From an uncultured Alphaproteobacteria bacterium (GTDB lineage Bacteria > Pseudomonadota > Alphaproteobacteria > RF32 > CAG-239): a stretch of 64,000 nucleotides of DNA. The stretch covers positions 146,065 to 210,064 of the forward strand of contig CALXTI010000001.1 of the NCBI GenBank assembly GCA_944391395.1, in the 5' to 3' direction. Under the pieces are notes generated by a model that did not search any database, had not been told where the DNA came from, and saw only the letters and a program-made list of their open reading frames with translations. Shown here one piece after another: positions 4,509 to 36,555 of the stretch (the stretch's first letter is position 1; each line of letters starts with the position of its first letter). Position numbers and translations under genes: made by a program.

Positions 4509-5237
4509 TTATCTTCTGTCACCCATAATTCTCAACAAATTAAGAAACAGGTTGATAAAATCCAAATATAATGACAAAGCGCCGGCAACCGCTTTGCGCG
4601 TTGCGGAATCTTCCGTGTCGGCAGAATGATATATGTTGCGGATTGTCTGTGTGTCATAAGCCGTTAAGCCGACAAAAACGGCGATTGTAATATACGATAA
4701 AGCATAATCCAAAGCCGTGCTTTGCATAAAGAGATTAACAATGCTGGCGATGATAACGCCCCATAAACCCATAATCATAAACGAACCCAAACCGGTCAAG
4801 TCGCGTTTGGTGGTGTAGCCATACAGGCTCATGGCGCCAAAAGTGCCGGCCGTGATTAAAAAGACGCGGGTCATGCTGGAGGCCGTATATGCCAAAACAA
4901 TCGGCGTCAACGACGCGCCGATTAAAGCGGAATAAAGCCAGAAAATGCCTTGGACTTGTGTTGTTGAACCACGGGAAACCGCCCAGTTGAAAGCAAAAAC
5001 CAAAATCAACGGCGCAATAAAAATCAACCAAGCAAATCCGGACATGGTGGCGGTGTTAGTTGCCGGGTTGAAGTTGAAGAACAATCTGATTAAGCCGGTG
5101 TTGGCAATCAGATACGCCACCAATGCGGTTAAGCACAAACCGCCGGCCATATAATTGTATACCTTAAGCATAAAGCCGCGCAAACCTTCGTCAACGCCGC
5201 TTCTTTCCACAGCCGAAGTGTAAGTTTTTGTTTCCAT
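4509..5237 (-). CDS. Bax-inhibitor-1/YccA family membrane protein (FtsH modulator-like)
   Basis: 242 aa with seven hydrophobic helices. N-terminal MKVYNYMAGGL and C-terminal DTQ..IR..SLYLDFINLF motifs are typical of BI-1/YccA. Confidence 0.75.
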   Translation of the reverse strand: METKTYTSAVERSGVDEGLRGFMLKVYNYMAGGLCLTALVAYLIANTGLIRLFFNFNPATNTATMSGFAWLIFIAPLILVFAFNWAVSRGSTTQVQGIFWLYSALIGASLTPIVLAYTASSMTRVFLITAGTFGAMSLYGYTTKRDLTGLGSFMIMGLWGVIIASIVNLFMQSTALDYALSYITIAVFVGLTAYDTQTIRNIYHSADTEDSATRKAVAGALSLYLDFINLFLNLLRIMGDRR

Positions 5238-5308
5238 AGTTTTCTCCTAAAAAAGTTTACCTGAGAAATAATATAGAAATTTTTTTATTAAAAATCAATA
5301 AACGTATA

Positions 5309-5343
5309 AAAAAACACCCGCCTTTCTCAAGGCGGGTGTTTTC
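5309..5343. terminator. Bidirectional terminator between the yccA-like gene and the degT-like gene (convergent)
   Basis: AAAAACACCCGCC-TTTCTCAA-GGCGGGTGTTTT hairpin. Confidence 0.6.
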
Positions 5344-5356
5344 AAAGCGCGGAAAA

Positions 5357-6517
5357 TTAAGCGGCTTTGGACGAATACTGCTTGGCAAATTCATTCATCG
5401 TATTGATGATGTAAGACTGTTCGTCTTCTTCAATATACGGATGCATCGGGATGCTCAAAACCGTTTGGGACAGTTTTTCGCAAACCGGAAGCGGCCGGGT
5501 GTTCCATTTTTTATAAGCCGTTTGAGTGTTAACCGGACGCGGATAATATACGCCGCACGGAATTCCGGCTTCTTTCAGGTAAGCCATCAGTTCATCGCGG
5601 TGTTCACAGTTAATCGTGTACAGGGCATAAGCCGAACGGCAGTTGTTCAAAATCCGCTGTTTGCCGAAATAAGGGCTCAGTTCCGTATCATAGCGTTTGG
5701 CGATGCGATAGCGGCTCTCCAGTTCGTTATCAAAAACTGTCAGTTTTTGCAAAATAACCGCGGCCTGGAAAGAATTCATACGGCCGGTCATGCCCAAACG
5801 GATATTATCATAATGGTCTTCCGGGCTCATACCGTGAACGCGGCAGGATTTAACCAGTTCGTTTTCTTCGTTGCTGTTGGTAAACACGGCACCGCCGTCG
5901 CCGTAACCGGCCAAAGGTTTGGTCGGATAAAAGGAAGTGGCGGTCATGTCCGAAATTGAACCGGCTTTTTTGCCATAATAAACCGAACCGTAAGACTGGC
6001 AGGAATCCGAAAGCACTTTCATGCCGTTGTCGTGAGCGATTTTGATGATTTCATCCAATTCGCACGGAGAACCGAAAATGTCAACCGGAATAACCGCTTT
6101 TAAGTTAAGCTTGCCTTCTTTTTTGACTTCGGCAATGGCGCGTTTCAAATCTTCGGGATCCATATTGTAGGTGTCCGGTTTTGAATCAACAAAAATCGGG
6201 GTAGCGCCAAGCAACACCGGAGCTTCGGCCGATGAAACGAAAGTAAAGGAAGAAACAAAAACCGCATCACCGACTTTAACGTCCCAAGCCATCAAAGCCA
6301 AGGTCAAAGCGTCGGTGCCGGAACCGCAAGTCGAACAGTATTTGGTGCCGGAATATTCCGCTAATTTTTGGTCAAGCTCTTTAGTTTCCGGACCTTGGCA
6401 ATATGCACCATGATCCAAAACTTTTTCTAAAGATGCCATAAATTTGTCACGGCCGATAATGTTTTGTGATGTGGCGCAATCAAACAAATTTATTTTTTTA
6501 GAAGGTTTATCCATCAT
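5357..6517 (-). CDS. DegT/DnrJ/EryC1/StrS-family PLP-dependent sugar aminotransferase
   Basis: 386 aa. Motifs GSGTDAL, FYPTKPL..G.GDGGAV and FxSxS match the family. Probable Lys-binding region is present. Confidence 0.8.
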   Translation of the reverse strand: MMDKPSKKINLFDCATSQNIIGRDKFMASLEKVLDHGAYCQGPETKELDQKLAEYSGTKYCSTCGSGTDALTLALMAWDVKVGDAVFVSSFTFVSSAEAPVLLGATPIFVDSKPDTYNMDPEDLKRAIAEVKKEGKLNLKAVIPVDIFGSPCELDEIIKIAHDNGMKVLSDSCQSYGSVYYGKKAGSISDMTATSFYPTKPLAGYGDGGAVFTNSNEENELVKSCRVHGMSPEDHYDNIRLGMTGRMNSFQAAVILQKLTVFDNELESRYRIAKRYDTELSPYFGKQRILNNCRSAYALYTINCEHRDELMAYLKEAGIPCGVYYPRPVNTQTAYKKWNTRPLPVCEKLSQTVLSIPMHPYIEEDEQSYIINTMNEFAKQYSSKAA

Positions 6518-6734
6518 TTTTTTATCCTTTAAAGTTAAAGTTCAAAACTGGGGCTGATAATAAGGGGAATGTTTGCTCGATGCAACACACAAGATGTTTC
6601 TTGATTGTAACAAAAAGCGCAATCCATACCAAAATATCAGCATATTTGTGTATTTTTTGTTGATTTAATCCGCATAATTGCTATATTTGTGCTATGTTTT
6701 CAGAAATTAAAAAAATTAATGTAAGGAAATTCTG

Positions 6735-7526
6735 ATGAAAAAATTTGGTCTGACGGCATTTTTGATATTAAGCCTTGCCGCGTGTGCCACCAATCCGGAT
6801 GGAAGCAAACTTTCCGCCGATGATGAAGAATCAAAAGTGGAATATTACAATCGCGCCATGTTCAATTTTAATTATCAGTTTAATAAAAAGGTGATGAAAC
6901 CCGTGGCCAAAGGCTACAAGAAAATCACCAACCAGTTTTTCCGTGACCGGGTCAGCGCTTTTTTTGACAATTTGGAAGAACCGGCTTATTTTATAAACAA
7001 TCTTTTTCAAGGCGAAATCAAAAACAGCGGTATTTCCGTCGGACGTTTTTTGCTTAATTCTACGTTAGGCCTGGCCGGAACGTTTGATGTGGCCGCAGGC
7101 TGGGGACTCGAAAAAAAGAAAAACAGTTTTGACCAGACCATGGCAAAATATTGCGTGCCGGACGGACCTTTCTTTATATTGCCGATTGTCGGACCGGCAA
7201 CGCCGCGGTATGTCGCGGGTTGGACGGCAGACGCTTATGCGAGTCCGTTGTTTTGGGCGTTGATAGACGTGGAAGATGACGGCGTCGATGCGGCTGTTGT
7301 CGGTGCTACGGCTTTGAAATATATCAATCTGTATGCGGAAAACGAAGGACTGATTGAAAGTTTGGAGGCCGGTTCGGTTGATTTTTATGCCACGATGAAG
7401 TCAGCCTTTTTGCAAAATCGGCAGAAATTCGTCAGCCTATGTGCCCAAGGCGCCGACGATGAAGAGACATTAAGTTACGATTTTGATTTTGGCTATGATG
7501 ACGCCTTTGATGAAGAAATGGAATAA
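6735..7526 (+). CDS. mlaA: MlaA/VacJ-family outer-membrane lipoprotein
   Basis: Lipoprotein signal (LILSLAAC). Conserved MlaA core: YNRAMFNFN, FFDNLEEP, LNSTLGLAGTFDVA. Confidence 0.75.
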   Translation: MKKFGLTAFLILSLAACATNPDGSKLSADDEESKVEYYNRAMFNFNYQFNKKVMKPVAKGYKKITNQFFRDRVSAFFDNLEEPAYFINNLFQGEIKNSGISVGRFLLNSTLGLAGTFDVAAGWGLEKKKNSFDQTMAKYCVPDGPFFILPIVGPATPRYVAGWTADAYASPLFWALIDVEDDGVDAAVVGATALKYINLYAENEGLIESLEAGSVDFYATMKSAFLQNRQKFVSLCAQGADDEETLSYDFDFGYDDAFDEEME

Positions 7527-8154: not shown

Positions 8155-8335
8155 GGGTTTGAAAACACCGTTGATATTGCCGGAATACTCTGTTCCGGCA
8201 ATGTTTTTTTTTGTTTTTTCGCTCTTAATGTTTTTTTATAATCCGTTTTTGATTTTCTAAATGTAAGGATTGACATTTTGCGCTTTTTTAGGTAAAATTA
8301 TCGTATGTATAAGTGTTTTTTTGTCGGGGGCTGTT

Positions 8336-10021
8336 ATGCTTAATATAAAGAGATTTTTTATAATTTTGGCCGGAGTGCTGTTTTTAAGCGCTTCCGCCGA
8401 AGCACGTGTTTGTTTCTTGGCGGGAAGCGATGACGCCAGTAATTGTTTGACCATTGCCGAGTTTGAAAGTTCCAGCTGCCCCGGATATACGACATGTGAA
8501 ATTCCTGATGTTGCGGCGCGCTCTTGTGATGAAGGCGGTGTGGCTGTTTACAAACCTGAAGATTGCTGCACCAACAACGAACATTTTGAGCCTTGCAACG
8601 GCGCCGGACAAATCTGCTTGAGCGGCACCAGCTGTAATGGTGTCGACGGTAACGGCGAAACTTATACATCATGCCTTATCGGTAATTGCGTTTGCGACAG
8701 CAGCTACTCGGAAAATTGTGCCGGAAACGGCCTGGAAGGCGTCGGCGAAGCTTGCGACGGCTTATATCAAAGTTGCCAATGCGCCAGCAACTATTATACT
8801 TGCGATGCGGCGGCAACCGGCGGCGGCAGCTCGTGTAATGACGGAACGCAAAAATACACTTCTTGTACTTGTCCGACTGCCGATGGCAGCGAATGGGTGA
8901 CAGATCCGGATATCTGCTGTTGGGGTGTGAGCGATACCTGTACATCACAACCAAGCGGCGATAAAGTTTATAAATGCCGCACCGGTCAGGTTTATGATTG
9001 TTTCTGCGGATATAGTTATGATGCCGGTAAAACTGGCTCTTGCAAAAACGGTTGTACCGACGATAACTATGAATATGTGGGAAATATTCCCAGCAACGCC
9101 ACCTGTGGTGATTTTACCCAGGGTATAAAAGGCGCCTGCGGAAATAATTGTTATTGTAATGACGGATATTGGGATTTCAAAGAAGAATGTTCTGTGCAAA
9201 ATGAAAACATCTGCGCGGAGCTGGGCTATACCGACACGTCCTGTGAAGGTGATTGGATTGCTTGTCCGTATGACGTTTCCGCTAAAAAATGCCTGGCTTC
9301 AGAAAAAGAAGAAGTTTGTACGGATGGCTATGCCAAAACGGTTGAAGAATGTGGAGACCGCGGAGCCGAGGCATGGACATTGGAAGCGGTTGCCGGTTCC
9401 AGCTGCGGTAAATGTACGCCGAAAGCCTGCCCGTCAGGTTCAAGCACAACGAGTAAAACGGCCAAGCCCGGTATCAGCGAAGTTGTTGTAACGGGATATT
9501 CCGGAATTGAGGAATGCACGAAATTGGCCAGCTGTGCGACAGGTTATGCTTACTCCAAAGATGCTTTGGATACCGGTGAAACGCTGGGTACAACTTATTT
9601 CGGCACGGTCAACGGTAAAAAATGTTATAAAATAACCTGTGCGTCCAGCAGTTTAACAAGTCTTACCTTTGGTAAGTATGCCACAACTCTTGCTGGCTGT
9701 GGAACACAAGGCGCCAAAGGCTGGAAATTTAACACTACAACAGGCAGCAGTAATTTGGGATGCAAACTTTGCGTTGCAAAATCCTGCCCGACAGGTTATT
9801 CAACAATGGTGAGCTTCTGCCAATGGGGCTCGGAGACGAAAGGATATTCCGGTGACTTGCCTTGTAGGAAATGCGTATCAGATTCTGGAAACATAGACTT
9901 TAACAGAAAGTGTACTCCCGGATGTGATTATGACTGTTCCAATGCCGGAGGGCCGCGTTGTACTTCACAAAGTACTTATAGAGGTCTGGCCTGCTTGAAA
10001 TGTGTTGAATTTATTGAATAA
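8336..10021 (+). CDS. Secreted cysteine-rich modular protein (paralog family member A)
   Basis: About 560 aa. Signal peptide MLNIKRFFIILAGVLFLSASAEA, then more than 70 Cys in repeated modules (CAELGYTDTSC...CPYDVSAKKC; ECGDRGAEAW..CGKCTPKACP; GCGTQGAKGW..CKLCVAKSCP). Start moved to the ATG at 8336, downstream of the ORF-track start. No family recognised. Confidence 0.6.
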   Translation: MLNIKRFFIILAGVLFLSASAEARVCFLAGSDDASNCLTIAEFESSSCPGYTTCEIPDVAARSCDEGGVAVYKPEDCCTNNEHFEPCNGAGQICLSGTSCNGVDGNGETYTSCLIGNCVCDSSYSENCAGNGLEGVGEACDGLYQSCQCASNYYTCDAAATGGGSSCNDGTQKYTSCTCPTADGSEWVTDPDICCWGVSDTCTSQPSGDKVYKCRTGQVYDCFCGYSYDAGKTGSCKNGCTDDNYEYVGNIPSNATCGDFTQGIKGACGNNCYCNDGYWDFKEECSVQNENICAELGYTDTSCEGDWIACPYDVSAKKCLASEKEEVCTDGYAKTVEECGDRGAEAWTLEAVAGSSCGKCTPKACPSGSSTTSKTAKPGISEVVVTGYSGIEECTKLASCATGYAYSKDALDTGETLGTTYFGTVNGKKCYKITCASSSLTSLTFGKYATTLAGCGTQGAKGWKFNTTTGSSNLGCKLCVAKSCPTGYSTMVSFCQWGSETKGYSGDLPCRKCVSDSGNIDFNRKCTPGCDYDCSNAGGPRCTSQSTYRGLACLKCVEFIE

Positions 10022-10048
10022 CAATTTTAATGCAGTTCCGGAAAATTT

Positions 10049-10075
10049 AAAAAGGCACCGTCAGGTGCCTTTTTA
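10049..10075 (+). terminator. Rho-independent terminator
   Basis: AAAAAGGCACC-GTCA-GGTGCCTTTTT. Confidence 0.6.
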
Positions 10076-10178
10076 GTATAATTTTAAATAAGCATAAAAC
10101 AAAAAAACAACCCTCTTGCTTTTTAAGAAAAAATATGATATATAAAAGTAGGTTTTTTGAACAGGGTATTGATTTGCC

Positions 10179-10538
10179 ATGATTATCAACAGTAATGATG
10201 CTTTGCAAAGAAATATTTTAACAAACAAGTGTTTCTACCAAACAACAGCGCAGATTATGCATGATTTTGAGCAGAAAGGTTATGCTAATTCGGCAGATGA
10301 AACCGCCAAAGTGATAGCTGCGTATCATGATGTTATGCAGAAAAAAACAAAAAATAATTATAGCAAGGATTATAACGAAGCTTTTGGTAAAATAGACAAC
10401 GCCATTAAAAACATGGCAAATAAGGTCTTTTACATTTATGATAAAAAAAGTTTTGACCTTGCTTATCAATCTTTTCAGAGTTTTGACTACATCAACGCCA
10501 TTATTGGTCGTCAGCGGATGAAAAAATCCCGTTTATAA
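10179..10538 (+). CDS. Hypothetical protein
   Basis: 119 aa AT-rich ORF with no recognisable motif. Confidence 0.3.
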   Translation: MIINSNDALQRNILTNKCFYQTTAQIMHDFEQKGYANSADETAKVIAAYHDVMQKKTKNNYSKDYNEAFGKIDNAIKNMANKVFYIYDKKSFDLAYQSFQSFDYINAIIGRQRMKKSRL

Positions 10539-10670
10539 AAAAGCAAACATATGTCGTTTTTTGTTTAAATTATAAAAAAAGCTCTGTGAACTTTTTTATA
10601 ATAGCCGTTGCAAAAATGCATTATTAAATCTACACTGCGTTTATAATTTTTAATTATCTGCGAGGATTTT

Positions 10671-11648
10671 ATGAAACAAATATCAGTTATCGGCTGCGGC
10701 CGTTGGGGCACGTTTTTGGGTTGGTATGCCGCTAATTATTGCGTGGACAGTGTCGTTCTTTATGATATTCCCACTTCGCCTAATTTTATTGAATTACAAA
10801 ACACTCGGCGAAATCCTTATCTGGAATTGAGCGACAACATGGTCTTGACGCCGGATTTGAATAAAATCCTGCAAAACGAATATATCATTATTTCCATCGG
10901 TTGCCAGCACCTGCGCGAATTGGCCAAACAACTCAACGGTTATGATTTGCAAGGAAAAAACTTTTTGTTGGCGATGAAAGGGTTGGAAGAACCCAGCGCC
11001 AAAATTTTAGTGGACGTTTTTAATGAAGAAATCAAACAAAAAATACATGTTGCCTGCTTAGGCGGCCCTGGGCATGTGCAGGATTATATGAAAAAAGTTC
11101 CGTCTTGCGCCGTTATCGACAGTTATGAAGAAGAGGCAAAAGAGTGCTGGATTGCGTTGTTGCAAAGCGATTTAATTCGTTTTTATTACGGCAATGATGT
11201 TGTCGGCAATCAAATCGGTGCTGCTCTTAAAAATGTTGTGGGTATTGCCGCCGGTATTTTAGACGGTTTGGAATGGTACGGTCTTAAAGGCGCTTTGATG
11301 GCGCGGGCGCCGGTGGAAGTCGGACGTTTGATAAAGCATTTTGGCGGTAATCCGTTCACGGCTTACGGTCTGGCTCATTTGGGCGATTATGAGGCCACTT
11401 TGTTTTCCAAGCACAGCCACAACCGCATGTATGGCGAAATGTTTGCCAAGGGCGAAAGGTTCGGCAAGTTGGCCGAAGGGGTTGCCACGCTCAAAGCCGT
11501 CAAACTGATCGCCGACAAAGAAAATATTGACATGCCGATTTGTCAGGCTCTGTATAAAGTGATTTATGAAGATGCCGACATCAAAGCCACAATTCGGGAA
11601 ATGTTTGAGCGTAATTTGAAAAAAGAATTTGATTATGTTTGCGCTTAA
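10671..11648 (+). CDS. NAD(P)H-dependent glycerol-3-phosphate dehydrogenase (GpsA)-like protein, divergent
   Basis: N-terminal Rossmann GxGxxG (VIGCGRWGTFLG). C-terminal GpsA-like helical domain (GNDVVGNQIGAALKNVVGIAAGILDGL...AYGLAHLGDYEATLFSKHSHNRMYG). GAGGA SD. Confidence 0.55.
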   Translation: MKQISVIGCGRWGTFLGWYAANYCVDSVVLYDIPTSPNFIELQNTRRNPYLELSDNMVLTPDLNKILQNEYIIISIGCQHLRELAKQLNGYDLQGKNFLLAMKGLEEPSAKILVDVFNEEIKQKIHVACLGGPGHVQDYMKKVPSCAVIDSYEEEAKECWIALLQSDLIRFYYGNDVVGNQIGAALKNVVGIAAGILDGLEWYGLKGALMARAPVEVGRLIKHFGGNPFTAYGLAHLGDYEATLFSKHSHNRMYGEMFAKGERFGKLAEGVATLKAVKLIADKENIDMPICQALYKVIYEDADIKATIREMFERNLKKEFDYVCA

Positions 11649-11728
11649 TATTGTAGATAATAAACGTTAAGAAAGCCGGCATTTTGCCGGTTTTTTTAAT
11701 AACAAAGAACATTCCGGAGGTTTAAATT

Positions 11729-12601
11729 TTGTTTCCGGTGCTTATATCTGGTAAAAATTGGAGAAAAGCCATGGAAAAAAGAATCACTTTGTTAGCCGGA
11801 TACGATAAAAATAAAATTATACGGGATTATGTTGTTTATCTTGTGCAAGAACTATCAAAAATCAGCGATGTATATTATTTCGCCGATGGTAAATTGCCGC
11901 GGGACGAACTTGATAAAATTCGCCCTTATGTCAAATATGCCGAAAGTTCTTTGCATCAAGGCTATGATTTCGGCTCCTGGCAATATCTTATTCATTTTGT
12001 CGGTTGGAACAAACTGAGCCAATACGATGAAATGATTATCTGTAACGACAGCGTTTATGGCCCGATGACCGAATTGCAAGATATTTTTGACTACATGGGG
12101 CTTCGCGGATACGACTTTTGGGGATTGACCGAAAATTACACCACTAATTATCATTTGGACAGCTATTTTATGGTGTTCAACAATAACATCTTGAAAAATG
12201 CCAAGTTTCGGGAATTTTGGCAGAATATCACTCCCGGTTTTAACCGCAAAACTTACGAAACGGTTTTGACGCCGTTTTTAACCGAGCTTGGTTTTGTCGG
12301 CAACAGCTATATTAAAAACTATAAAAAAGATGATATGTTGGCTTATCCGCTGCATTTGCTTGAAATAAAAAACATGCCTTTCATCCGGGTGAAGTCGCTG
12401 AAAGAACCGAAATATTATCTGAAAGAAACGGTGTTTAACATAGACGGCAAAATCCACCGTAAGACAGGTTATAAGACGGAAATGATAAACAAACATTTAT
12501 CCGCTGTCGGAGATTTTTCGGGGTTCGGCATAAAATATTATTTAAAAAATACGATGGATAGTTTGAAATCAAAATTTGATAATTTTATCCCCCGGCTTTA
12601 A
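11729..12601 (+). CDS. Rhamnan-synthesis protein F (RgpF)-like glycosyltransferase family protein
   Basis: 290 aa. Motifs YDFGSWQY and HLDSYFMVFNN resemble the Rhamnan_synth_F family. The ORF-track start is TTG at 11729 preceded by GGAGG; an alternative ATG at 11771 is preceded by GGAGA. Confidence 0.45.
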   Translation: MFPVLISGKNWRKAMEKRITLLAGYDKNKIIRDYVVYLVQELSKISDVYYFADGKLPRDELDKIRPYVKYAESSLHQGYDFGSWQYLIHFVGWNKLSQYDEMIICNDSVYGPMTELQDIFDYMGLRGYDFWGLTENYTTNYHLDSYFMVFNNNILKNAKFREFWQNITPGFNRKTYETVLTPFLTELGFVGNSYIKNYKKDDMLAYPLHLLEIKNMPFIRVKSLKEPKYYLKETVFNIDGKIHRKTGYKTEMINKHLSAVGDFSGFGIKYYLKNTMDSLKSKFDNFIPRL

Positions 12602-12636
12602 GATATAAACAGTTGTTGTAAAAAATCACGGAGGAT

Positions 12637-13200
12637 ATGATGTCTGAAGAAGAAAAATCACTAAAATCGCCGGTTCGTTTGCCGAATCCGGAAATTTCGG
12701 ATCCGTTGTTGCAGCTTATCAACAACCGAGTTTCTACCAAAGAATTTTGTTTAGGCAGTTTGGATGAACAGGACGTCAGCAATATTTTATGGTCGGCTTT
12801 CGGGCAAAATAAAAAAGGGACTCGCACGATTCCGACAGCCTTAAATGAAAAAAACTTAAAAGTATATTTGCTTAATGAAAAGGGAATTTGGTGGTACAAC
12901 GGCGAAAGTCATACATTAAGCAAAATTTCCAACGAAAACGCTCTTCCTTTTTTGGAAAGTCAGGAATATGTGCAAAACGGCTCGCTTAATCTGGTTTATA
13001 CCGGAAGCAACCGCGATTATTCGCCATTGCATGCCGGTTCGGCTTATCAAAATGTTTATTTATACGCTACGGAAAAGGGATTGGGGAGTGTTGTCCGCGG
13101 GTTTATTGATAAAGAAAAACTTCATCGCGTGCTTGGCTTAAAAGATGATGAATTTGTCATTATTCATCAATTAATCGGCTATCCCGTAAAAAAAGATTAA
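12637..13200 (+). CDS. Nitroreductase-family protein
   Basis: 187 aa. N-terminal NRVSTKEF (RRS.R.F-like) and the overall fold pattern match the nitroreductase superfamily. Confidence 0.55.
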   Translation: MMSEEEKSLKSPVRLPNPEISDPLLQLINNRVSTKEFCLGSLDEQDVSNILWSAFGQNKKGTRTIPTALNEKNLKVYLLNEKGIWWYNGESHTLSKISNENALPFLESQEYVQNGSLNLVYTGSNRDYSPLHAGSAYQNVYLYATEKGLGSVVRGFIDKEKLHRVLGLKDDEFVIIHQLIGYPVKKD

Positions 13201-13246
13201 AAAAACACTTGCGATTTGTAAAAAAAGATTATAGAAAAGGGGGCAT

Positions 13247-13337
13247 GGATAGATGGCCGAGTGGTCGAAGGCGCACGATTGGAAATCGTGTGTACCCCCA
13301 AAGGGTACCGTGAGTTCGAATCTCACTCTATCCGCCA
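13247..13337 (+). tRNA. tRNA-Ser (anticodon GGA)
   Basis: 91 nt with long variable arm. Acceptor GGATAGA/TCTATCC, anticodon loop TTGGAAA, T-arm GAGTTCGAATCTC, encoded CCA. Confidence 0.85.
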
Positions 13338-13344
13338 TTTACAA

Positions 13345-13373
13345 GAAACCCCGCTGCAGAAGCGGGTTTTTTT
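13345..13373 (+). terminator. Rho-independent terminator after tRNA-Ser
   Basis: AAACCCCGCT-GCAGA-AGCGGGTTTTTTT. Confidence 0.65.
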
Positions 13374-13537
13374 GTAAATGATGAGGGAGAGTAGAGTTCG
13401 AACTCACGGAGTAAGTGAGTTTGACTTTCAACAGAAAAGCGGTAAAATTTTTTGCTTTGACTTTTGTAAAGTCAAAAAGTTTTTGTGAGGTTTGTGTGGT
13501 ATGAAAAAGCGCGGAATTTCCGCGCTTTTGAAAAAAA

Positions 13538-14380
13538 TCAATTACACTTCCAGCCACCGGTCTCTCCTGTTTGGCAACAGCGATTTGTGCTGGTGCTACC
13601 GCAAGATCCACCCCATCCAGATGGTGTTGGTGCATTGCTTCCCATGCAAACGGTATCGCAATTATATAGGTCACAGGCATCCATGGCATCCCAATTACAC
13701 AGCCTATTGTAATAACATGTTTTACGTGTGTCGCCTAAATATACAGAGTAGGATTTGTAAATAGAACCAGAGCCTGCGCTGCTAGAAGCATATCCATAAT
13801 CGCGGCAAGTTTTAGCCGTGCATTTACCCATCGGTGTGTCGCCGGAGTAGCATCCTTCATATTTCCAGCCGCTTGGGTGAGAGCCGTTTCCGCAATCATT
13901 AACGCTGGCATATTGGGCATTGTATCCGACACAATCTTTGGCAATGCATTTGCCGCAGGTAACGGTTCCGCCCAAACTGTTGGAAACGATGGTTGTTTCC
14001 ACTTTCCAGCCTTCCGGATGGCTGCCGCTGCCGCAATCTGCTACCGAAGTCAAATTCTCGGTAAAGCCTTCCGGACAAAGCGCCTTACTTTCAGCACAAA
14101 GCGTATATGACCTGTCGGTTAAACAAGTTACAATGTTGCCGCACCAGGAAGATTTGTCATCGGTGGTAAAACCGAGCGCTTCGCAGCTGGGTTGAATACA
14201 TTTCTTATAACTTTCGTCAAACGGGCAATATAAATATCCATCGTCGGCACAATTCGCATCGTCGGTTTGACTAAACCCCAAAGCAGCGCAATCCGGCAAA
14301 ACTTCGCAGTTAACCTGAGCCTTGACCGGAAAAGCGGCGGCGGTTGCTAAAAGTATACTCAGAAAACTGATTTTAGGCAT
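13538..14380 (-). CDS. Secreted cysteine-rich modular protein (paralog family member B)
   Basis: 280 aa. Signal peptide MPKISFLSILLATAAAFPVKAQV. Modules CAALGFSQTDDANC..YLYCPFDESYKKC and CEALGFTTDD, and twice GSGSHP.GWK...GKC.AK.C, shared with the 8336 and 14390 proteins. Confidence 0.6.
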   Translation of the reverse strand: MPKISFLSILLATAAAFPVKAQVNCEVLPDCAALGFSQTDDANCADDGYLYCPFDESYKKCIQPSCEALGFTTDDKSSWCGNIVTCLTDRSYTLCAESKALCPEGFTENLTSVADCGSGSHPEGWKVETTIVSNSLGGTVTCGKCIAKDCVGYNAQYASVNDCGNGSHPSGWKYEGCYSGDTPMGKCTAKTCRDYGYASSSAGSGSIYKSYSVYLGDTRKTCYYNRLCNWDAMDACDLYNCDTVCMGSNAPTPSGWGGSCGSTSTNRCCQTGETGGWKCN

Positions 14381-14389
14381 TGTTTACTC

Positions 14390-14854
14390 CTATCTTAAAA
14401 GGCATTTAACTTTGGTTTTGCTGGCAGGGCATTTTAAATATTCCCGGCAATTTCCGACGTCATCGGTGTAGCCCAACGCAGCACAACGTTCGGCGTCGGT
14501 TACCAGTTCGTGCAGCAAACCGTTCCAACAGGTTTCGCGGTTGTAATAACCGTCTTCACAAAGGGCAATGCTGCATTCATAACAGATTAAGTCATGATAT
14601 TCAACCTGAATACAAGAATATCCGTCACTTGATTTTAGCGGTGCGCTGTAGTAGCGCCCGTCTTCACAGGTGTATTGTTTGCACCATTTGTAAGAACTGT
14701 CAAACGGGCAGGTGATGTAGCCTTCCGTGCAGGTGATGTTTTGTTTGTAGCCTAATTCGGCGCATGAGGGGCGGTCAATGCAATCTTGTCCGCAAACCTG
14801 GGCGGAAACATTGAAAGGAAGAAGTAGCAATGACAACAAAAGGATATTTTTCAT
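14390..14854 (-). CDS. Secreted cysteine-rich protein (paralog family member C)
   Basis: 154 aa. Signal peptide MKNILLLSLLLLPFNVSAQ. Modules CAELGYKQNITC..YITCPFDSSYKWC and CAALGYTDDVGNC. Confidence 0.6.
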   Translation of the reverse strand: MKNILLLSLLLLPFNVSAQVCGQDCIDRPSCAELGYKQNITCTEGYITCPFDSSYKWCKQYTCEDGRYYSAPLKSSDGYSCIQVEYHDLICYECSIALCEDGYYNRETCWNGLLHELVTDAERCAALGYTDDVGNCREYLKCPASKTKVKCLLR

Positions 14855-15023
14855 CTGAAAGGCACCTGCTGTTTATGTTAACATATATACATTATAAACT
14901 ATTTTCATGTTTTTGCAATTATATTCTGAAGATATAAAAAATGTGTAAATAAACGGCATGAAAAAATGATTAAAAGCTTGCGTTGAACTGAAAATATTAT
15001 ATTTTAACAACAGCGGAGGTTTT

Positions 15024-24402: not shown

Positions 24403-27400
24403 TTAAAAGCTATACTTTAAGCCGGCATTATATACCATATTATCATTATGTTCAAGCAGGCGCATGATTTCAGCATACACATTCCAGCCATTGAATTGAT
24501 AGTCGGTTTTCAAACTGATGACGCCGCGGCTGCGGGAATTGTCATAACCTGCAATTTCGTACAGGCCGTTCATGCCGGCGAACCGCGCGTTGATGTTTTG
24601 GTAGGCATCGTCATTTAGCTCGTAATAATACATGGCGCCGGCCTTTAAGTTGAGTTTCCCTTTAGCGCCAAAATCCGCTGCTTTGGAAAGGTAAGCGCCT
24701 AAGCCGGCTTCGGCTGAGAACATATTTTTGGCCTTAACCGAAATTCCGCCATCTTCGGCAAAGTCATCTTGATACATGCCGCTTAAGTTTATTTCTGCCG
24801 TCGGTTCAATATTGATACCGGAAGCTTGTTTTTTAAGGTAAATGCGGTTGTTCAAACCGTAGTAATAAGCTTTGAGGTCGGCCGTATGCTTTTTGGCATC
24901 GTCATAACGCTCATAATCACCGTCGCTAAATCCGACGTATGGTATAATCAGCGCGCCCCAACGCTCATAATCAAACCAATAAGGGTTGTAAACCTCAAAT
25001 AAATTATCATCGCGGTTGACGCCGTTGTCAAAATCAGTATCGACGCGGTAAACGCCCAACCCGATACCGTAACGGAAATTGTTGTTGATTTTTTTATCAA
25101 ACAAGCCGCTGAAGCCAAATAGACGCTCTTCATAACCGCTGACGCCGTCGTGCGCTTTGATGTCGTGATAATAATTGTCGGAAACAACGCTTACGCGTTC
25201 ATCTTTTTCGGAGGCGTTGTTTTGCATTAAATCAGCCATAGTGCGGTTGATGTGGCGCAGTCTCGCAAAATTTTGGTAAGCAAACGCCGGTACAAAATTT
25301 GTTCCTAATGTTTCTGCGACCACATTATTGAGTTTTGTTGTGTCTTCCGCGGTTTTGAATGTGTCAAACACATCGATTCGGTTGCCTTGTTGATAGTTGT
25401 TTTCAAGATATGAGGCCAGATTTTTATTTGCCATCAGTTTGTTGAAATCATAACGCGTCATCGCAATTTTATCACCGATCATTTCAGCGGCAAACATAGC
25501 GCTGTCGGAAGCGGCGGTCGCATTGTTTTCTTCCGCTTCAATCACGCGGCTTTCGTAGTAGTCATCATTGCTGCCGGTGGTCAGGTCTGCACCGCCATAC
25601 AATGTTCCGCTGACACTGCCGGTTTTGATTATGGAGTTTTTGCCGGCGACAGTCTTGCTTTTTTCATCAGCCAGAGCGTCTAAATTTAAGCTGTCTTCAG
25701 CTTCTAAAACGCCGAGATTGTAAAATTTTGCGCCGTTGGTCAAAGCAAATGCTTGCGCTCCGGCAGATTCCGTATCATCAGACAATGTACCGCCGTTTAT
25801 GGTCTCGGTTTCTTGGCTGCCGCTTCCGCTTACGGTGATAGTGCCTTGATTAACGATAACGGATTTTGAGCCGTTGGCGTACATGCCGACCGCGTTTGTG
25901 CCGCTGACGGTGATGGCGCCGCGGTTGATAAGTTTGACATAATTATCGTTTACGCCGTCCACATAACCGTCGGCAAACATGCCGGTACTTTCTTTGCCGC
26001 CGGTTAATGTGATGCTTCCCCGATTTTCAAATCCTTCTTCACCGGTTCCGGTAGCGTAAACCCCGTATTGATTATCACCGATTAAAGTGATGTTGCCTTC
26101 ATTGTATCCGGTTGCGGTTTTTTCAAGATAAATCCCGACCCGGCCGGATGCGCCGGCAGAACGATCATTTATTTTGCCGGTTGAGGAATTGATGACTTGG
26201 CCGGAATCGGCGTACATGCCTATGCCGTCTTTTATGTCGATGGATATGGTGCCGTTGTTGGTTAACTTTGCATTGTTTTGTCCCATCATGCCGATGCCCA
26301 TGTATCCGGAAATGTTAATCACGAAATCGTTTATAATCTCAGCTAAGCTTCCGTCAGCCAGCATTCCTGTGGCGTTTTCCGTTTGCGCTTCAAGCGTTCC
26401 TTTGTTGATAAGTTTGCTGAGGTGATTGCTGCCGTTGGCGTACATGCTGACGGCATTTTCTGAATCGATATTGATGCTGCCGCGGTTTTCAAATCCGTCG
26501 GCAGATGTGCCTTCGGCATATATACCGACGCCGTCCGCAAAACCGGTGATTGTAATGCTGCCTTCGTTGTAACCACCCGCATCACCGGTAAGATAAATGC
26601 CAAAAGCTTTGGATGACTGTTGGTTTTCTCCTTCGGTTTCTGTGGCGGTCAAATTGAGCGCGCTGCTGTTGATAACCGTATTGCCGTTACCGTTTGATTC
26701 AATGCCTTTCAGATTGACGGCACCGGTTAAATCAATCGTACCGTTGTTGGTAAACGAAACGGATTGACCGTTGAGCTGCACACCGGCAATTTTGTCGGGA
26801 TAATCTATGTCGATGCTGTTGTTTAAAGTGGCGTCGACGTAATTGCGGTCGATGACAAGACCTTTTATTTGCGGATCATCGCTTTCTTCTAAGGTATGCA
26901 TCAACGCTTTTATGTTGTTAACGCTCAAAGAACTGCGCTTGTCGGCCGAAGCCTCATCATTGTACCAATCGGTATAGTGCAAAACCGCTCCTCCCGGAAA
27001 GCGTTCGGCATAGATCGTACCGCTGTATTGGTCAACGTTTGTTATGTCGCCGACAATAAAATTATCCTGATAACGCGAATTGAGCTGAAGTACGGAATGT
27101 TGGCCGCCGGTGTTGTTTATAATGCTATCGATACTTTTAAAATGAACATTACTTAAATCAACCGTGCCGTTGTCTTTATATGAATAGTACGACAGATAAT
27201 ACGCTTCGATTTGCCCGGAATTTTCAAATTCTTTGGTGCGTATCTGATAGGTTTTTAAGGTGCCGCGATTGATGACGCTTTCAAGGTAGCCGGTTTTGTT
27301 TTCATCGGCAATATGTCCTTCAGTACTGCCTAAAGTGCCGATTTCGGCAACTCCTCCTTCTTCATTAACAAACGTGCCGTATTCGGGTCTGGATTCGTAT

Positions 27401-29634
27401 CCGGACAAAGCGCCTATAAACATGTTGCCGCTGTTGTGTGTTTCGCTGATTTCTCCGATGTTGACGTCAAAGACGCCGCCAGCCAAATTGTTGAGGATTG
27501 CAGCTCCCATATCGGCTTCGGCGCCGGTCAGCGTGCCGGCGTTGTTGATGGTGGAGCCATATGCCTCAATGTTGCCGTTAAGCGTTGCGCCGGATTGCAC
27601 GTTTAAGATGCTTTCACCAAGGTTGACGGAATAAAAATAGCCGCCGATTCCGGAAATTTGATAGTCGATGTTTGCGTATTGGTCGATAATTGAATGTTGG
27701 GCGACCAGACCGCCGGCAACAAAATTCGGGAAACTGCTTTCATAATACTGGCTGTTCATGTCCACATAAATATCGCCATGATTGGTAAGCTTCACGCCGT
27801 CAATTAATAAAGCCTGCATGGTGGCGTTTCCGGTCATGGTTATTTTACCGCTGTTTTCAGCCTTGATTAAAGTGCTTTCGTCTTCTTTGGAAACGTTTTC
27901 GCCTTTGTTAAGCACGCTTAATCCCATGGCACGGTAGCGGTCTCGATAAGCATTGACATCTTCATGATTGAGATTTGCAAAATAGGTTTCATCAAAACTG
28001 AAGTTAACATCTATGGCGCCGGAATTGTTAACTTCTATTTTATCAAACTCGTTTAACGGGATTGCCGAGACATTCATTCCCGCCACGGTCATATATTTAT
28101 CTTTTCCGGAAGTGTTTCCTTTTTCAATACGCTCATCGGTTGTCAGTTTGAGCGTAATGTTCCCCTCATTGTTCCAACTATTGATCAATTCTTTTTCAAT
28201 GTCATAACTGCGATGTAATCCGCCGGTCGACCTTCCGTCAAGCGTTAAGTAAATACCCAGGTTGGCTGTTGAGGGTTCAATATAATTATAGTCATGAGCT
28301 CCGTTAAGAGAATTATCTTGGATAACAAAGGTCGCCGTTCCGGTTAAGGTAATGTCGCCGGAATTGTAAACAACGCCATTGCCAAGCAGCATGATGCCTA
28401 TATTGTCCCGACCGTTCAGGTAAACCGTGCCGTTGTTTTCCAAAGTATGGAGGCTCTCCAGTTTGCTGTTTATAACACTTCCCAAAGTTTCGGTCAGAAT
28501 ACCGTAGCTGTCGTCTGCCGTGATGGTGATGGTGCCTGAATTTGAAATGGCTCCCACGCCGGAATCAATGCTTGTAAAAAATGTTTTATATGTGCTGGGT
28601 TCATGCGTTGCCATAATACCGACGCCATCGTATCCATCTGCCAAAACAATGTTTCCGGTATTGTCGACTCCGCCGGAGGACGCATATATTCCGCCCCAAG
28701 TTTCGCTTTTATTTGTTCCCGTGTTGGTCAAATTTTCAGAGTTATCGGTTCCGTTGTCGGTTTCGATGACAAAATTTGTTTCAGGTTCGACTTCGGTAAT
28801 GCAAGATTCACAACCGCCGCAAGAATTGTAACTTGAACAAACTTGTCCGGCGGTGCAGGTAAGGTCGGTGTAGCAACCTTCGGCGCAAGGGTTTTCTTTA
28901 CAAACATCGATTTGTTCGCATCTTTCGCAGCCGCCGCAACTATTTTGTTCGGCGCAAGTGTAACCTTCGGTGCAGGTAAGGTTGGTGTAGCAACCTTCGG
29001 CACAAGGATTTTCTTCACACGTTTCAACCGGCGGATCATTGCAGACAAGACAGTTACCGTTTTCATCCTCTTCGGCGCAACCGAATTCGCAGCTTAATCC
29101 CGGAGTTTCGGCCGTTTCATCACCACCGCCGCCGCCACCGCCGCCACCGTTTAAAAGTAGCGCTATGCCGCCGCCGGCAAGAAGCAAACCGGCCAAAGCC
29201 CATTTTTTGGAATTTGATTTTTCCATGTTATAAACCGGCGGCACATAATCGGCACTTTGCCATGTCGCACCGGCTTGCACGGCGTCTGATTCTATAAAAG
29301 CCTGATAATAGGGAATTTTCCATGTGCAAGGATGGTCAGGGTTGGCGCCCGCTTGACGGAAGGCATTATAAGCCGTGGCATTGCGCCGTTTGGCGGCAAC
29401 ACAAAGTCCCGTGTCGCCGTATGCGTTGGTGGCGTTAATGTTCATGCCGCGATGCACCGCTTCAAGCAACAATCTGACATCGCCTCTGGCCGCGACGGCA
29501 TACATCTCGTTAAAGTTGCGCGGCGCCAAACGATATGAACTCGCCGCCGCCGGCGATACAACCGTGCTGATTATCAGCGCCGGCATAAGAATAAAACTGA
29601 TAACTTGTCTGAAAAACCGTCCGGACATGATCAT
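24403..29634 (-). CDS. Large autotransporter (type Va) adhesin-like protein with repetitive beta-helical passenger
   Basis: 1743 aa. Sec signal peptide. An ankyrin-like repeat follows near the N-terminus (YGDTGLCVAAKRRNATAYNAFRQAGANPD). Hydrophobic plus poly-Gly linker, then tandem Cys-rich ~40-aa module. Dozens of GxITLTG/GxxxxGMYAxG passenger repeats. C-terminal beta-barrel ending ...YNAGLKYSF. Confidence 0.75.
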   Translation of the reverse strand: MIMSGRFFRQVISFILMPALIISTVVSPAAASSYRLAPRNFNEMYAVAARGDVRLLLEAVHRGMNINATNAYGDTGLCVAAKRRNATAYNAFRQAGANPDHPCTWKIPYYQAFIESDAVQAGATWQSADYVPPVYNMEKSNSKKWALAGLLLAGGGIALLLNGGGGGGGGGDETAETPGLSCEFGCAEEDENGNCLVCNDPPVETCEENPCAEGCYTNLTCTEGYTCAEQNSCGGCERCEQIDVCKENPCAEGCYTDLTCTAGQVCSSYNSCGGCESCITEVEPETNFVIETDNGTDNSENLTNTGTNKSETWGGIYASSGGVDNTGNIVLADGYDGVGIMATHEPSTYKTFFTSIDSGVGAISNSGTITITADDSYGILTETLGSVINSKLESLHTLENNGTVYLNGRDNIGIMLLGNGVVYNSGDITLTGTATFVIQDNSLNGAHDYNYIEPSTANLGIYLTLDGRSTGGLHRSYDIEKELINSWNNEGNITLKLTTDERIEKGNTSGKDKYMTVAGMNVSAIPLNEFDKIEVNNSGAIDVNFSFDETYFANLNHEDVNAYRDRYRAMGLSVLNKGENVSKEDESTLIKAENSGKITMTGNATMQALLIDGVKLTNHGDIYVDMNSQYYESSFPNFVAGGLVAQHSIIDQYANIDYQISGIGGYFYSVNLGESILNVQSGATLNGNIEAYGSTINNAGTLTGAEADMGAAILNNLAGGVFDVNIGEISETHNSGNMFIGALSGYESRPEYGTFVNEEGGVAEIGTLGSTEGHIADENKTGYLESVINRGTLKTYQIRTKEFENSGQIEAYYLSYYSYKDNGTVDLSNVHFKSIDSIINNTGGQHSVLQLNSRYQDNFIVGDITNVDQYSGTIYAERFPGGAVLHYTDWYNDEASADKRSSLSVNNIKALMHTLEESDDPQIKGLVIDRNYVDATLNNSIDIDYPDKIAGVQLNGQSVSFTNNGTIDLTGAVNLKGIESNGNGNTVINSSALNLTATETEGENQQSSKAFGIYLTGDAGGYNEGSITITGFADGVGIYAEGTSADGFENRGSINIDSENAVSMYANGSNHLSKLINKGTLEAQTENATGMLADGSLAEIINDFVINISGYMGIGMMGQNNAKLTNNGTISIDIKDGIGMYADSGQVINSSTGKINDRSAGASGRVGIYLEKTATGYNEGNITLIGDNQYGVYATGTGEEGFENRGSITLTGGKESTGMFADGYVDGVNDNYVKLINRGAITVSGTNAVGMYANGSKSVIVNQGTITVSGSGSQETETINGGTLSDDTESAGAQAFALTNGAKFYNLGVLEAEDSLNLDALADEKSKTVAGKNSIIKTGSVSGTLYGGADLTTGSNDDYYESRVIEAEENNATAASDSAMFAAEMIGDKIAMTRYDFNKLMANKNLASYLENNYQQGNRIDVFDTFKTAEDTTKLNNVVAETLGTNFVPAFAYQNFARLRHINRTMADLMQNNASEKDERVSVVSDNYYHDIKAHDGVSGYEERLFGFSGLFDKKINNNFRYGIGLGVYRVDTDFDNGVNRDDNLFEVYNPYWFDYERWGALIIPYVGFSDGDYERYDDAKKHTADLKAYYYGLNNRIYLKKQASGINIEPTAEINLSGMYQDDFAEDGGISVKAKNMFSAEAGLGAYLSKAADFGAKGKLNLKAGAMYYYELNDDAYQNINARFAGMNGLYEIAGYDNSRSRGVISLKTDYQFNGWNVYAEIMRLLEHNDNMVYNAGLKYSF

Positions 29635-35881: not shown

Positions 35882-35955
35882 TGCTTTGTCGTCTAATGGT
35901 AGGACAGCGGACTCTGACTCCGTTAATCTTGGTTCGAATCCAGGCAAAGCAGCCA
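35882..35955 (+). tRNA. tRNA-Gln (anticodon CUG)
   Basis: Acceptor TGCTTTG/CAAAGCA, 3-bp D-stem, anticodon loop CTCTGAC, T-arm CTTGGTTCGAATCCAGG, encoded CCA. Confidence 0.8.
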
Positions 35956-35960
35956 CTAAA

Positions 35961-36316
35961 AAACCCTCTTTATGAGGGTTTTTTAGTGGCTGCTTTGTCA
36001 TTGGACGAGAAGCAATGTTCGGAATCGCGATGCCCGCCGGAAAATGTCGGCGGGCGGAAAGATGGCGGCTGCCTTTGGAAAAGGTCAGCCGCCTATCCAG
36101 GCAATTATGCTTGAGGCAAGTAGATTTATAATGAAACACAAACCCTCTTTATGAGGGTTTTTTAGTGGCTGCTTTGTCATTGGACGAGAAGCAATGTTCG
36201 GAATCGCGATGCCCGCCGGAAAATGTCGGCGGGCGGAAAGATGGCGGCTGCCTTTGGAAAAGGTCAGCCGCCTATCCAGGCAATTATGCTTGAGGCAAGT
36301 AGATTTATAATGAAAC
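35961..36316. repeat. Perfect tandem duplication of a 178-bp unit immediately downstream of tRNA-Gln
   Basis: Unit 1 (35961-36138) and unit 2 (36139-36316) are identical by eye. Each unit holds three perfect hairpins (AAACCCTC/GAGGGTTT; GCCCGCCG/CGGCGGGC; GGCGGCTG/CAGCCGCC) and an 11-nt inverted copy of the tRNA 3' end (TGGCTGCTTTG). With unit 1, the tRNA 3' end completes a 24-bp perfect palindrome. Confidence 0.85.
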
Positions 36317-36419
36317 GTTCTCAATACCTATCCGGTTTATTCCTTCGGCGGTATAAATTTCAACTTGAAAATGATTAAGCGACAAGCGTTATAGAAAATC
36401 AGATAGTTAAAGGTTTGTC

Positions 36420-36545
36420 TTGCAAAAAATGTAAATATTCACCATTTTATGTTGTAAAAAATGTAAATATTTGCTATTTTATGTTGCAAAAAATGTAAAT
36501 AAGCGCTATATTTATGTTGTAAAAAATGTTATTTCGCTCATTTGG
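36420..36545 (+). repeat. Four tandem ~32-bp direct repeats (TTG[C/T]AAAAAATGTAAATA...) upstream of the DUF4143 ATPase gene
   Basis: Repeat starts at 36420, 36452, 36484 and 36517, each with an 18-20 nt conserved core. They end 10 nt before the ATPase SD. Confidence 0.7.
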
Positions 36546-36555
36546 AGAAAAAATT

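Follow-up and report, generated by a model that had tools for sequence, protein, structure and literature searches.

The 64-kb stretch analysed here, called the window throughout, comes from an uncultured gut alphaproteobacterium (contig CALXTI010000001.1) and contains three cysteine-rich genes, A, B and C, which are the subject of this study (Table 1). All three were present exactly where the initial annotation had placed them. The gene products look like signal-peptide proteins, as proposed there, and each N terminus resembles the classical Sec type. A starts with MLNIKRFFIILAGVLFLSASAEA/RVC, B with MPKISFLSILLATAAAFPVKA/QVNC and C with MKNILLLSLLLLPFNVSA/QVC, with the slash at the predicted cleavage site. 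Inspection and alignments reveal in each case a basic n-region, a hydrophobic core of 10-15 residues and small residues at positions -3 and -1; such n-h-c N termini with A-x-A-like sites are also found in essentially all relatives. The ATG at 8336 as start codon of A is backed by 24 homologues with the same start (39-96% identity). In the AlphaFold models, residues 5-17 of A form a detached helix of low confidence, and residues 1-24 of B have a predicted local distance difference test (pLDDT) score below 50. A lipobox ([LVI][ASTVI][GAS]C) was not found before the first cysteine in AEARVC (A), KAQVNC (B) or SAQVC (C), and a lipoprotein identity was rejected for that reason. A class III signal as in type IV pilins, with a glycine followed by a hydrophobic helix and a glutamate at +5, is absent from A, B and C. 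The N termini suggest that A, B and C are exported by the Sec system.

Cysteine accounts for 10.7% (A), 9.6% (B) and 10.4% (C) of the residues of the precursors and for 10-12% of the mature parts, which is less than the 12-15% given initially. The proteins combine short, cysteine-defined units, of which there are at least four kinds. Module 1 has about 33 residues with four cysteines, plus a fifth conserved cysteine a few residues upstream, follows the pattern C-x2-[LM]-[GN]-[YF]-x(4-9)-C-x(5-8)-C-P-[FY]-[DN]-x-[ST]-x-K-x-C and normally stands right after the signal peptide. A hidden Markov model (HMM) profile built from 33 copies detected five copies in A, B and C together, with domain E values from 4e-13 to 2.5e-18. 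Three of these (residues 293-319 of A, 31-61 of B and 31-58 of C) had been listed in the initial annotation; two more diverged ones (residues 66-95 of B and 124-151 of C) had been missed. In the six-frame translation of the window the motif C-A-x-L-G-[YF] occurs five times, only within A, B and C, and in an alignment of 55 relatives the cysteines 25, 31, 44, 52 and 61 of B are invariant. Module 2 (CP.G[YF]...CG..G..GW...CGKC..K.C, 38-49 residues) is present twice in A and twice in B, and the HMM recovered all four copies that had been described before. The copy number of the modules does vary between the three proteins, as had been stated, with one module 1 and two modules 2 in A, two of each in B, and two modules 1 and no module 2 in C. 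Module 3 of C (CEDGRY...CY[ED]C) was found by regular expression in 26 copies among the collected relatives, for example at residues 63-90 of protein P0029, and module 4, at the end of A, recurs at the C termini of P0029, P0030, P0082, P0088-P0090 and others. The idea that A, B and C are paralogues thus holds for the modules, which they have in common, but not for the proteins as a whole, since A has no overall homology to B or C.

In every alignment of the family the cysteine positions are invariant columns, a picture expected of modules held together by disulfides. The AlphaFold model of B (mean pLDDT 77) consists of module blocks at 75-94 that form small beta-hairpin units, with short helices and a beta-hairpin in the first module 2 (75-93). 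In the model of A (mean pLDDT 69.6), residues 50-215 are at 80-92 and module 2 at 83-90. The modules are therefore modelled with good confidence although the alignments are shallow.

The modules had been regarded as unlike any described domain, and sequence, profile and fold searches indeed gave no recognised match. At E ≤ 1, A, B and C matched no family in Pfam, including PF07603 (Lcl_C/DUF1566), a domain that is of importance below, and none in NCBIfam. The sole match in PHROGs, of C to phrog_14851 (unknown function, E = 0.009), was not matched at the level of a domain and was judged to be noise. Searches of the PDB by sequence (B) and by profile (module 1 and the A and B families) yielded nothing significant; the best match, to eosinophil cationic protein (E = 0.026 over 47 residues), was dismissed as cysteine-driven noise. 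Fold searches with the models found no structural neighbour, no domain-level fold search having been made. Homology to EGF, granulin or chitin-binding families, named beforehand as the outcome that would speak against a new family, was sought and not found, nor was fold similarity to solved members of the EGF-like, cEGF, TIL, granulin or chitin-binding families. Weak matches to cEGF (3/55) and to TIL or TIL_2 (3/55) are present in relatives, with E values from 0.005 to 3e-5, and fall outside modules 1 and 2. In the literature on DUF1566 cysteine-rich proteins and on gut Alphaproteobacteria (RF32) we found no paper that describes the module-1 family. The domain families are new to the libraries searched; the functional kind that they suggest, exported binding proteins of modular build with a variable head, is familiar.

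An exhaustive HMM search of 1.84 billion proteins, clustered at 50% identity, with the module-1 profile retrieved 925 cluster representatives at E ≤ 1e-3, of which 171 also reach E ≤ 1e-10; a single protein has up to seven copies of module 1. Because of this number of matches, chance open reading frames can be ruled out for A, B and C; the genes are conserved. Word-indexed searches gave about 31 clusters for B, about 32 for A and 14 for C, all without a functional name; one is labelled 'hypothetical protein'. When one genome per species was scanned (185,579 species), the family proved to be narrowly distributed: all 54 confirmed loci are in metagenome-assembled genomes (MAGs) of uncultured (gut) Alphaproteobacteria, in line with the restriction to one lineage that had been postulated. 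The hosts of these MAGs are rabbit, several other animals and human. Separate scans found no relatives on viral contigs and only two in the metagenome contig collection. The bin CAVBCV01 (L032, L034, L039, L047, L057, L059) is titled 'Lachnospiraceae bacterium', has the same gene content as the alphaproteobacterial MAGs, and shares module-1 and pilin genes and synteny with the alphaproteobacterial MAG MGYG-HGUT-00610. Probably the label is wrong or the bin is contaminated.

Module 1 was found in 300 of 318 collected proteins, in one to seven copies each. The first copy starts at a median of residue 34, usually right behind the signal peptide, and a variable C terminus follows. The tandem of module 1 and its variant 1', as in B, is the commonest architecture (175 of the 300), and module 2 is present in 173 copies in 77 of the 318 proteins. 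Members of the A subfamily consist of a signal peptide, a cysteine-rich core of 265 residues, module 1 and an optional variable extension; the conserved core of the homologues covers residues 1-320, and many of them (320-325 residues) stop right after module 1. In both subfamilies the constant part gives way to the variable one at module 1. What comes after this module can be recognised in some of the 193 relatives scanned: 21 of them (12/55 plus 9/138) have an Lcl_C/DUF1566 domain directly after module 1(+1'), six a phage tail Collar domain, one a beta-flower and one a pectate-lyase-like adhesive domain. All recognisable partner domains are of ligand-binding types. The initial proposal of surface or host-interaction proteins fits these fusions, as far as can be judged from sequence.

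The same division is evident within a single genome. The rabbit MAG CANPYS01 ('Lapin-001__bin79'; L009-L027, L030) has at least 20 paralogues, three of them on a single 93-kb contig. They have a near-identical signal peptide and modules 1+1', with CEELNYSK replacing LGY, and several end in Lcl_C. Among at least 18 of these paralogues, the first 285 nt are 76.5% identical (median) versus 58% for the remainder.

Genes C and B form an operon. They are 9 nt apart, and an AGGAG Shine-Dalgarno site, 8 nt ahead of the ATG of B, overlaps the stop codon of C (TAG). A promoter-like site precedes C, and a perfect hairpin past B is likely the terminator of the operon; it is also the distal edge of the variable cassette described below. 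A C-like gene followed by a B-like gene within 10-30 bp was found in three further species (L007, L028, L072), twice in unrelated neighbourhoods and once at the syntenic site beside Sir2. In yet other species a C-like N terminus is fused to module-2 repeats or other extensions (P0029, L043, L073). A is a transcription unit of its own, with its own promoter-like site and terminators on both sides, and is unlinked to C-B in other species.

The clearest sign of diversification came from a comparison, over 20 kb, of conspecific contigs from several metagenomes and one NCBI assembly. These have the gene order of the window and are 99.1-99.6% identical outside the tail of B, and yet the last 87 residues of B are replaced by alleles that cannot be aligned, which bears out the rapid diversification suggested for these proteins. 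The stretch 13529-13793 is the only one in the comparison without nucleotide similarity: the first 579 nt of B are 93-98% identical between strains, the remainder only 50-62%. There are at least three tail alleles, giving proteins of 280, 285 and 290 residues; their tails are 28-52% identical at the amino acid level and have a common cysteine pattern. One allele is nearer (55%) to the tail of P0010, a protein of another 90%-identity cluster. The replaced DNA ends at 13529, 10 nt past the stop codon of B, at the hairpin, and no second gene is exchanged with it. On one scaffold an assembly gap (N-gap) lies exactly at the cassette. Second or silent copies of the tails were not found in the 64-kb window. 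The constant part of B is itself more variable than its surroundings. It diverges by 4.7% between strains versus 1.2% in the flanks, has a ratio of nonsynonymous to synonymous changes of 9:14 versus 8:45 for the flanks (Fisher p = 0.03), and is a mosaic between strains; C has no nonsynonymous changes. That B is the target of a diversity-generating retroelement was rejected, since alleles without nucleotide similarity do not arise by point mutagenesis; a reverse transcriptase was not found among the window proteins scanned.

Table 1 Features of the A, B and C genes and their surroundings (positions are those of the window unless stated; aa, amino acids)
Feature	Position	Strand	Details and basis
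MlaC terminator, upstream of the promoter-like site of A	8173-8205		
Promoter-like site for A (TTGACA-17-TAAAAT, 11/12)	8270..8298	+	consensus match only
Gene A	8336..10021	+	561 aa, 60 Cys; own transcription unit; open reading frame
Signal peptide of A (aa 1-23, MLNIKRFFIILAGVLFLSASAEA)	8336..8404	+	predicted by inspection; AEA/RVCFLAG conserved across the A family
N-terminal Cys-rich core of A (aa 24-288), specific to the A subfamily	8405..9199	+	41 invariant columns, mostly Cys/Gly/Tyr; no database match
Module 1 in A (aa 289-322, ...CAELGYTDTSCEGDWIACPYDVSAKKC...)	9200..9301	+	HMM, E = 2.4e-16
Module 2 copy 1 in A (aa 328-365)	9317..9430	+	HMM, E = 8.8e-12; pLDDT ~83-90
Module 2 copy 2 in A (aa 447-484)	9674..9787	+	HMM, E = 7.2e-14
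C-terminal module 4 in A (aa 527-556, C.YDCSN.GG..C..STY.G..C.KC)	9914..10003	+	recurrence
Terminator-like hairpin after A	10047..10076	+	scan
Perfect hairpin past B, 12-bp stem (AAAAGCGCGGAA T TTCCGCGCTTTT)	13505..13529		sequence
Strain-variable cassette, 3' end of B (aa ~196-280, last 87 residues, 10 Cys)	13529..13793	-	strain comparison
Gene B	13538..14380	-	280 aa, 27 Cys; second gene of the C-B operon; open reading frame
Module 2 copy 2 in B (aa 152-192)	13805..13927	-	HMM, E = 4.3e-13
Module 2 copy 1 in B (aa 102-150)	13931..14077	-	HMM, E = 1.2e-15
Module 1' in B (aa 62-98, CEALGFTTDDKSSWCGNIVTCLTDRSYTLC)	14087..14197	-	HMM, E = 9.3e-17
Module 1 in B (aa 27-64)	14189..14302	-	HMM, E = 2.5e-18
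Gene C	14390..14854	-	154 aa, 16 Cys; first gene of the C-B operon; open reading frame
Module 1 copy 2 in C (aa 120-154)	14393..14497	-	HMM, E = 4.4e-13
Module 3 in C (aa 63-94, CEDGRY...C.QV.Y..L.CYEC)	14573..14668	-	regular expression
Module 1 copy 1 in C (aa 27-61)	14672..14776	-	HMM, E = 9.3e-16
Promoter-like site upstream of C (TTGCAA-16-TATAAT)	14891..14918	-	consensus match only
Module-1/pilin neighbourhood of L047 (positions in that locus)	5141-7192	same strand	

Between A and B lie genes for GpsA, RgpF and a nitroreductase, identified with Pfam, and a gene for tRNA-Ser(GGA) at 13247-13337. The initial annotation had called this bracketed stretch accessory. The identities of the genes stand, and the low content of guanine plus cytosine (G+C) and the absence from this position in related species agree with the term; within the species, however, the stretch is conserved. 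Within 10000-13200, orf119, RgpF and the nitroreductase have a G+C content of 30-38% versus about 45% around them, with GpsA at about 44%, and in two related species C or C-B is found beside Sir2/SppA and then followed by different genes (a DUF58-MoxR-UvrD block). The 10000-13200 stretch is probably a lineage-specific acquisition beside a tRNA gene that became fixed within the species. An inverted, 82% complementary copy of the 3' end of the tRNA-Ser(GGA) gene (CCGTGAGTTCGAATCTCACTCT, 13308-13329) is present 58 nt downstream, at 13388-13409, just beyond the terminator-like hairpin of the tRNA (13336-13380). It could be left over from a second tRNA gene or from an integration event. In the conspecific assembly GCA_949285295.1 the spacer between B and the nitroreductase, which contains tRNA-Ser, is about 186 bp longer (L066 4332-4850 versus L065 4332-4664). 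In the region 35882-37863 another tRNA gene, for tRNA-Gln(CTG), is followed by a stretch of low G+C content (37%) that encodes an AAA_14/DUF4143 ATPase and may be another small island beside a tRNA gene.

Otherwise the window is an ordinary diderm chromosome with genes for MlaA/MlaC, LptF/G, FadL, an autotransporter and tRNA synthetases; SecB adjoins a Tim44-like gene. The autotransporter (24403-29634, minus strand, 1743 residues) is another large surface protein, whose beta-domain was matched and whose passenger is without a Pfam match.

How can these findings be combined? Judging from sequence, we consider it fairly probable that A, B and C leave the cytoplasm, are stabilised by disulfides and act like adhesins, at the surface or released from the cell, with exchangeable binding tails. 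They would be exported via Sec by this diderm gut alphaproteobacterium and fold outside the cytoplasm as strings of small disulfide-stabilised modules, the disulfides making the binding proteins resistant to proteases. Module 1(+1') would be the constant base that carries a variable distal part with a specific job. Since the recognisable distal parts in the relatives are ligand-binding domains, A, B and C are most likely adhesin-like binding proteins as well. C and B are the products of a single, translationally coupled operon and probably work jointly, because other species encode both as a single polypeptide; A is a separately transcribed member with its own cysteine-rich core ahead of module 1. 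The tail of B would then be a cassette that is swapped between strains by recombination, in the manner of variable surface-binding proteins. A swap would change the ligand or the recogniser (a phage or an antibody), and diversifying or balancing selection may act on the tail through either of them.

Several observations weigh against this reading. A, B and C themselves have no recognisable binding domain, and the argument for binding is drawn from relatives that have nothing beyond the N-terminal modules in common with them. In a diderm cell a Sec signal by itself takes a protein no further than the periplasm, and beside A, B or C no secretion system was seen. The gut habitat is presumably without oxygen, B has an odd number of cysteines (27), and the excess of even over odd cysteine counts across the family is not significant (158 versus 127, p = 0.075), on crude boundaries of the mature proteins and with many fragments. 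Finally, residues 217-289 of A and the variable tail of B are poorly modelled by AlphaFold.

It is tempting to go one step further and to speculate that module 1 is a new small disulfide-rich docking fold that holds exchangeable heads at the surface, possibly on type IV pili, and that the whole is a cysteine-rich variant surface system like those of gut protozoa, with diversity created by cassette exchange via the conserved 5' handle. This extension is less probable, and we put it forward as tentative.

A related explanation turns the pilus from a possible site of attachment into the core of the matter: the module-1 proteins would be partners of type IV pili, either adhesins of tip or shaft or proteins exported by the pilus machinery, with module 1 for docking. 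Housekeeping genes apart, type IV pilins are the only family found repeatedly beside module-1 genes, with 19 genes in 13 of 59 loci and in the window, the enrichment near module-1 genes being a rough estimate. They belong to the Pfam family PilS/Bundlin and have the prepilin N terminus GRSMVEMLGVLAIIG, in the window as in the loci. In at least five contexts (L031/L039, L032, L038, L047/L051, L052) the pilin and the module-1 gene share a strand and are about 80-450 bp apart, and in L051 (4124-8014) a protein of 91 residues, with little beyond module 1, is encoded inside an array of four pilin paralogues. The window has an orphan pilin gene (38184-38849, plus strand) among tRNA-synthetase genes, with no assembly genes nearby, and also encodes a protein of about 1130 residues with a prepilin-type N terminus and no Pfam match (about 48591-51989, plus strand). 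In the window, however, 24 kb separate the pilin gene from B, and none of A, B and C is next to a pilin gene; the adjacency involves other module-1 subfamilies, with the N termini 'ALTCxNDY' and 'AALNC'. No pilus assembly genes were found beside any of the loci, and pilin and module-1 genes, both being multi-copy and variable, could merely share hotspots. A partnership with pili appears doubtful.

As to the large protein just mentioned, its likely start, MKTKSKTFLHKISQAG/SMMVEAMAMLALISLV, resembles a prepilin-type signal with glutamate at +5, which suggests a giant pilin-like or pilus-tip protein. Just before it is an open reading frame of 263 residues (47789-48580, plus strand) without a Pfam match and with the cysteine cluster CVSSIDGSCCSNDCLEDGKC.

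The proteins could also do without a specific ligand and serve as a protective coat, a cysteine-rich, protease-resistant surface family that covers the cell and varies as antigens do. Cysteine contents of 10-12% with many CxxC motifs, at least 20 paralogues in one genome, conserved 5' ends with a variable remainder, strain-specific tail alleles and the gut habitat are all in accordance with a coat. A, B and C, however, show neither a membrane anchor nor a lipobox nor any other signal for attachment; moreover, nothing points to the expression of one paralogue at a time, the paralogues bear recognisable binding domains, and the three proteins have no Pfam match at E ≤ 1, hence none to the variant-specific surface protein (VSP) family of Giardia. 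We regard a mere coat as unlikely.

Even less likely, in our opinion, is a polymorphic toxin or bacteriocin in which the conserved N terminus serves for delivery and the tail of B acts against competitors. The layout of B is the classic one of polymorphic toxins, a constant N-terminal part with a sharply bounded, unalignable C-terminal cassette, and small disulfide-rich secreted peptides are often toxins. The tail, however, comes without an immunity gene, as no open reading frame lies at the end of the replaced DNA and the next feature is the oppositely oriented tRNA-Ser, and a toxin-immunity cassette was rejected for this reason. The similarity of the tails and their common cysteine pattern identify them as variants of one domain and not as different toxin folds, no toxin domain was found with Pfam, the partner domains are binding domains, and no secretion-system or Rhs/CDI-type (contact-dependent inhibition) elements are nearby. 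That the cysteines bind metals or shuttle electrons in periplasmic proteins rather than forming structural disulfides, as might be concluded from their number, the recurrent CxxC (CGKC, CKLC, CRKC, CLKC), the odd cysteine count of B and a Sec signal that alone predicts the periplasm, is hardly credible, since their spacing is conserved in short independent modules with beta-hairpins, typical of disulfide-held domains, conserved histidine or aspartate partners are missing, and fusions to Lcl_C, Collar and an adhesive beta-helix as well as a strain-variable tail would make little sense.

Uncultured gut Alphaproteobacteria are present in the human and many animal gut metagenomes sampled, and to our knowledge almost nothing has been described of their dealings with their surroundings. 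The module-1 family probably belongs to the main tools that they have at the surface or secrete, and it is invisible to annotation pipelines; with modules 1 and 2 defined as domain families, an annotation could be given to hundreds of 'hypothetical proteins'. For strain typing, the strain-specific tail of B is a candidate marker, and it may determine the specificity for host, mucus or phage. Bacterial proteins with 10-12% cysteine that are built from tandem mini-domains are, as far as we know, uncommon, and such mini-domains could give new protease-stable scaffolds. If the idea of a variant surface system is true, these bacteria would have a counterpart of the cysteine-rich variant surface protein systems of gut protozoa.

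The variant-specific surface proteins of Giardia are a cysteine-rich family with variable exposed parts and a constant C-terminal part that includes a transmembrane anchor. The module-1 family resembles them in belonging to a gut organism, in having about 11-12% cysteine with many CxxC, in being a large multigene family and in having variable parts that would be exposed; unlike the VSPs it is bacterial and non-homologous, has no C-terminal transmembrane anchor, and its constant part is N-terminal. With EGF-like, cEGF and TIL domains, modules 1 and 2 have in common that they are short, repeated and presumably extracytoplasmic, and are defined mainly by cysteine spacing and beta-hairpins. By eye, residues 272-285 of A (CYCNDGYWDFKEEC) fit the EGF-like pattern, C-x-C-x2-G-[FYW]-x(4-8)-C. 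However, modules 1 and 2 have four to five cysteines in another spacing and non-cysteine residues of their own (LG[YF], CPFD.SYKKC, G..GW, CGKC..K.C). To polymorphic toxins (CDI, Rhs), B is similar in its constant N-terminal region and a bounded C-terminal cassette that differs between close strains, whereas it lacks an immunity gene and a toxin domain, and its tails are diverged versions of one small cysteine-rich domain. TcpF and CofJ are proteins exported by type IVb pili. Like them and like pilus tip adhesins, module-1 proteins are signal-peptide proteins encoded beside pilin genes, several of them within pilin arrays; the link is one of position only, with no relationship in sequence or fold, and A, B and C are not beside pilin genes.

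The last comparison is with Lcl, the Legionella collagen-like adhesin. It leaves the cell by type II secretion, is attached to the cell surface and binds glycosaminoglycans with a C-terminal domain that contains DUF1566 (PMC11162425). Lcl consists of an N-terminal region for surface attachment, a stalk and this C-terminal binding domain, which is without disulfides (PMC11162425). A, B and C have no Lcl_C, and where Lcl has its N-terminal helix and collagen-like stalk they have cysteine-rich modules. Nevertheless, they and Lcl are signal-peptide proteins of Gram-negative bacteria, and it is precisely the Lcl_C domain that 21 relatives of B place directly after module 1(+1'). In layout, Lcl is the nearest studied counterpart of the proteins described here.

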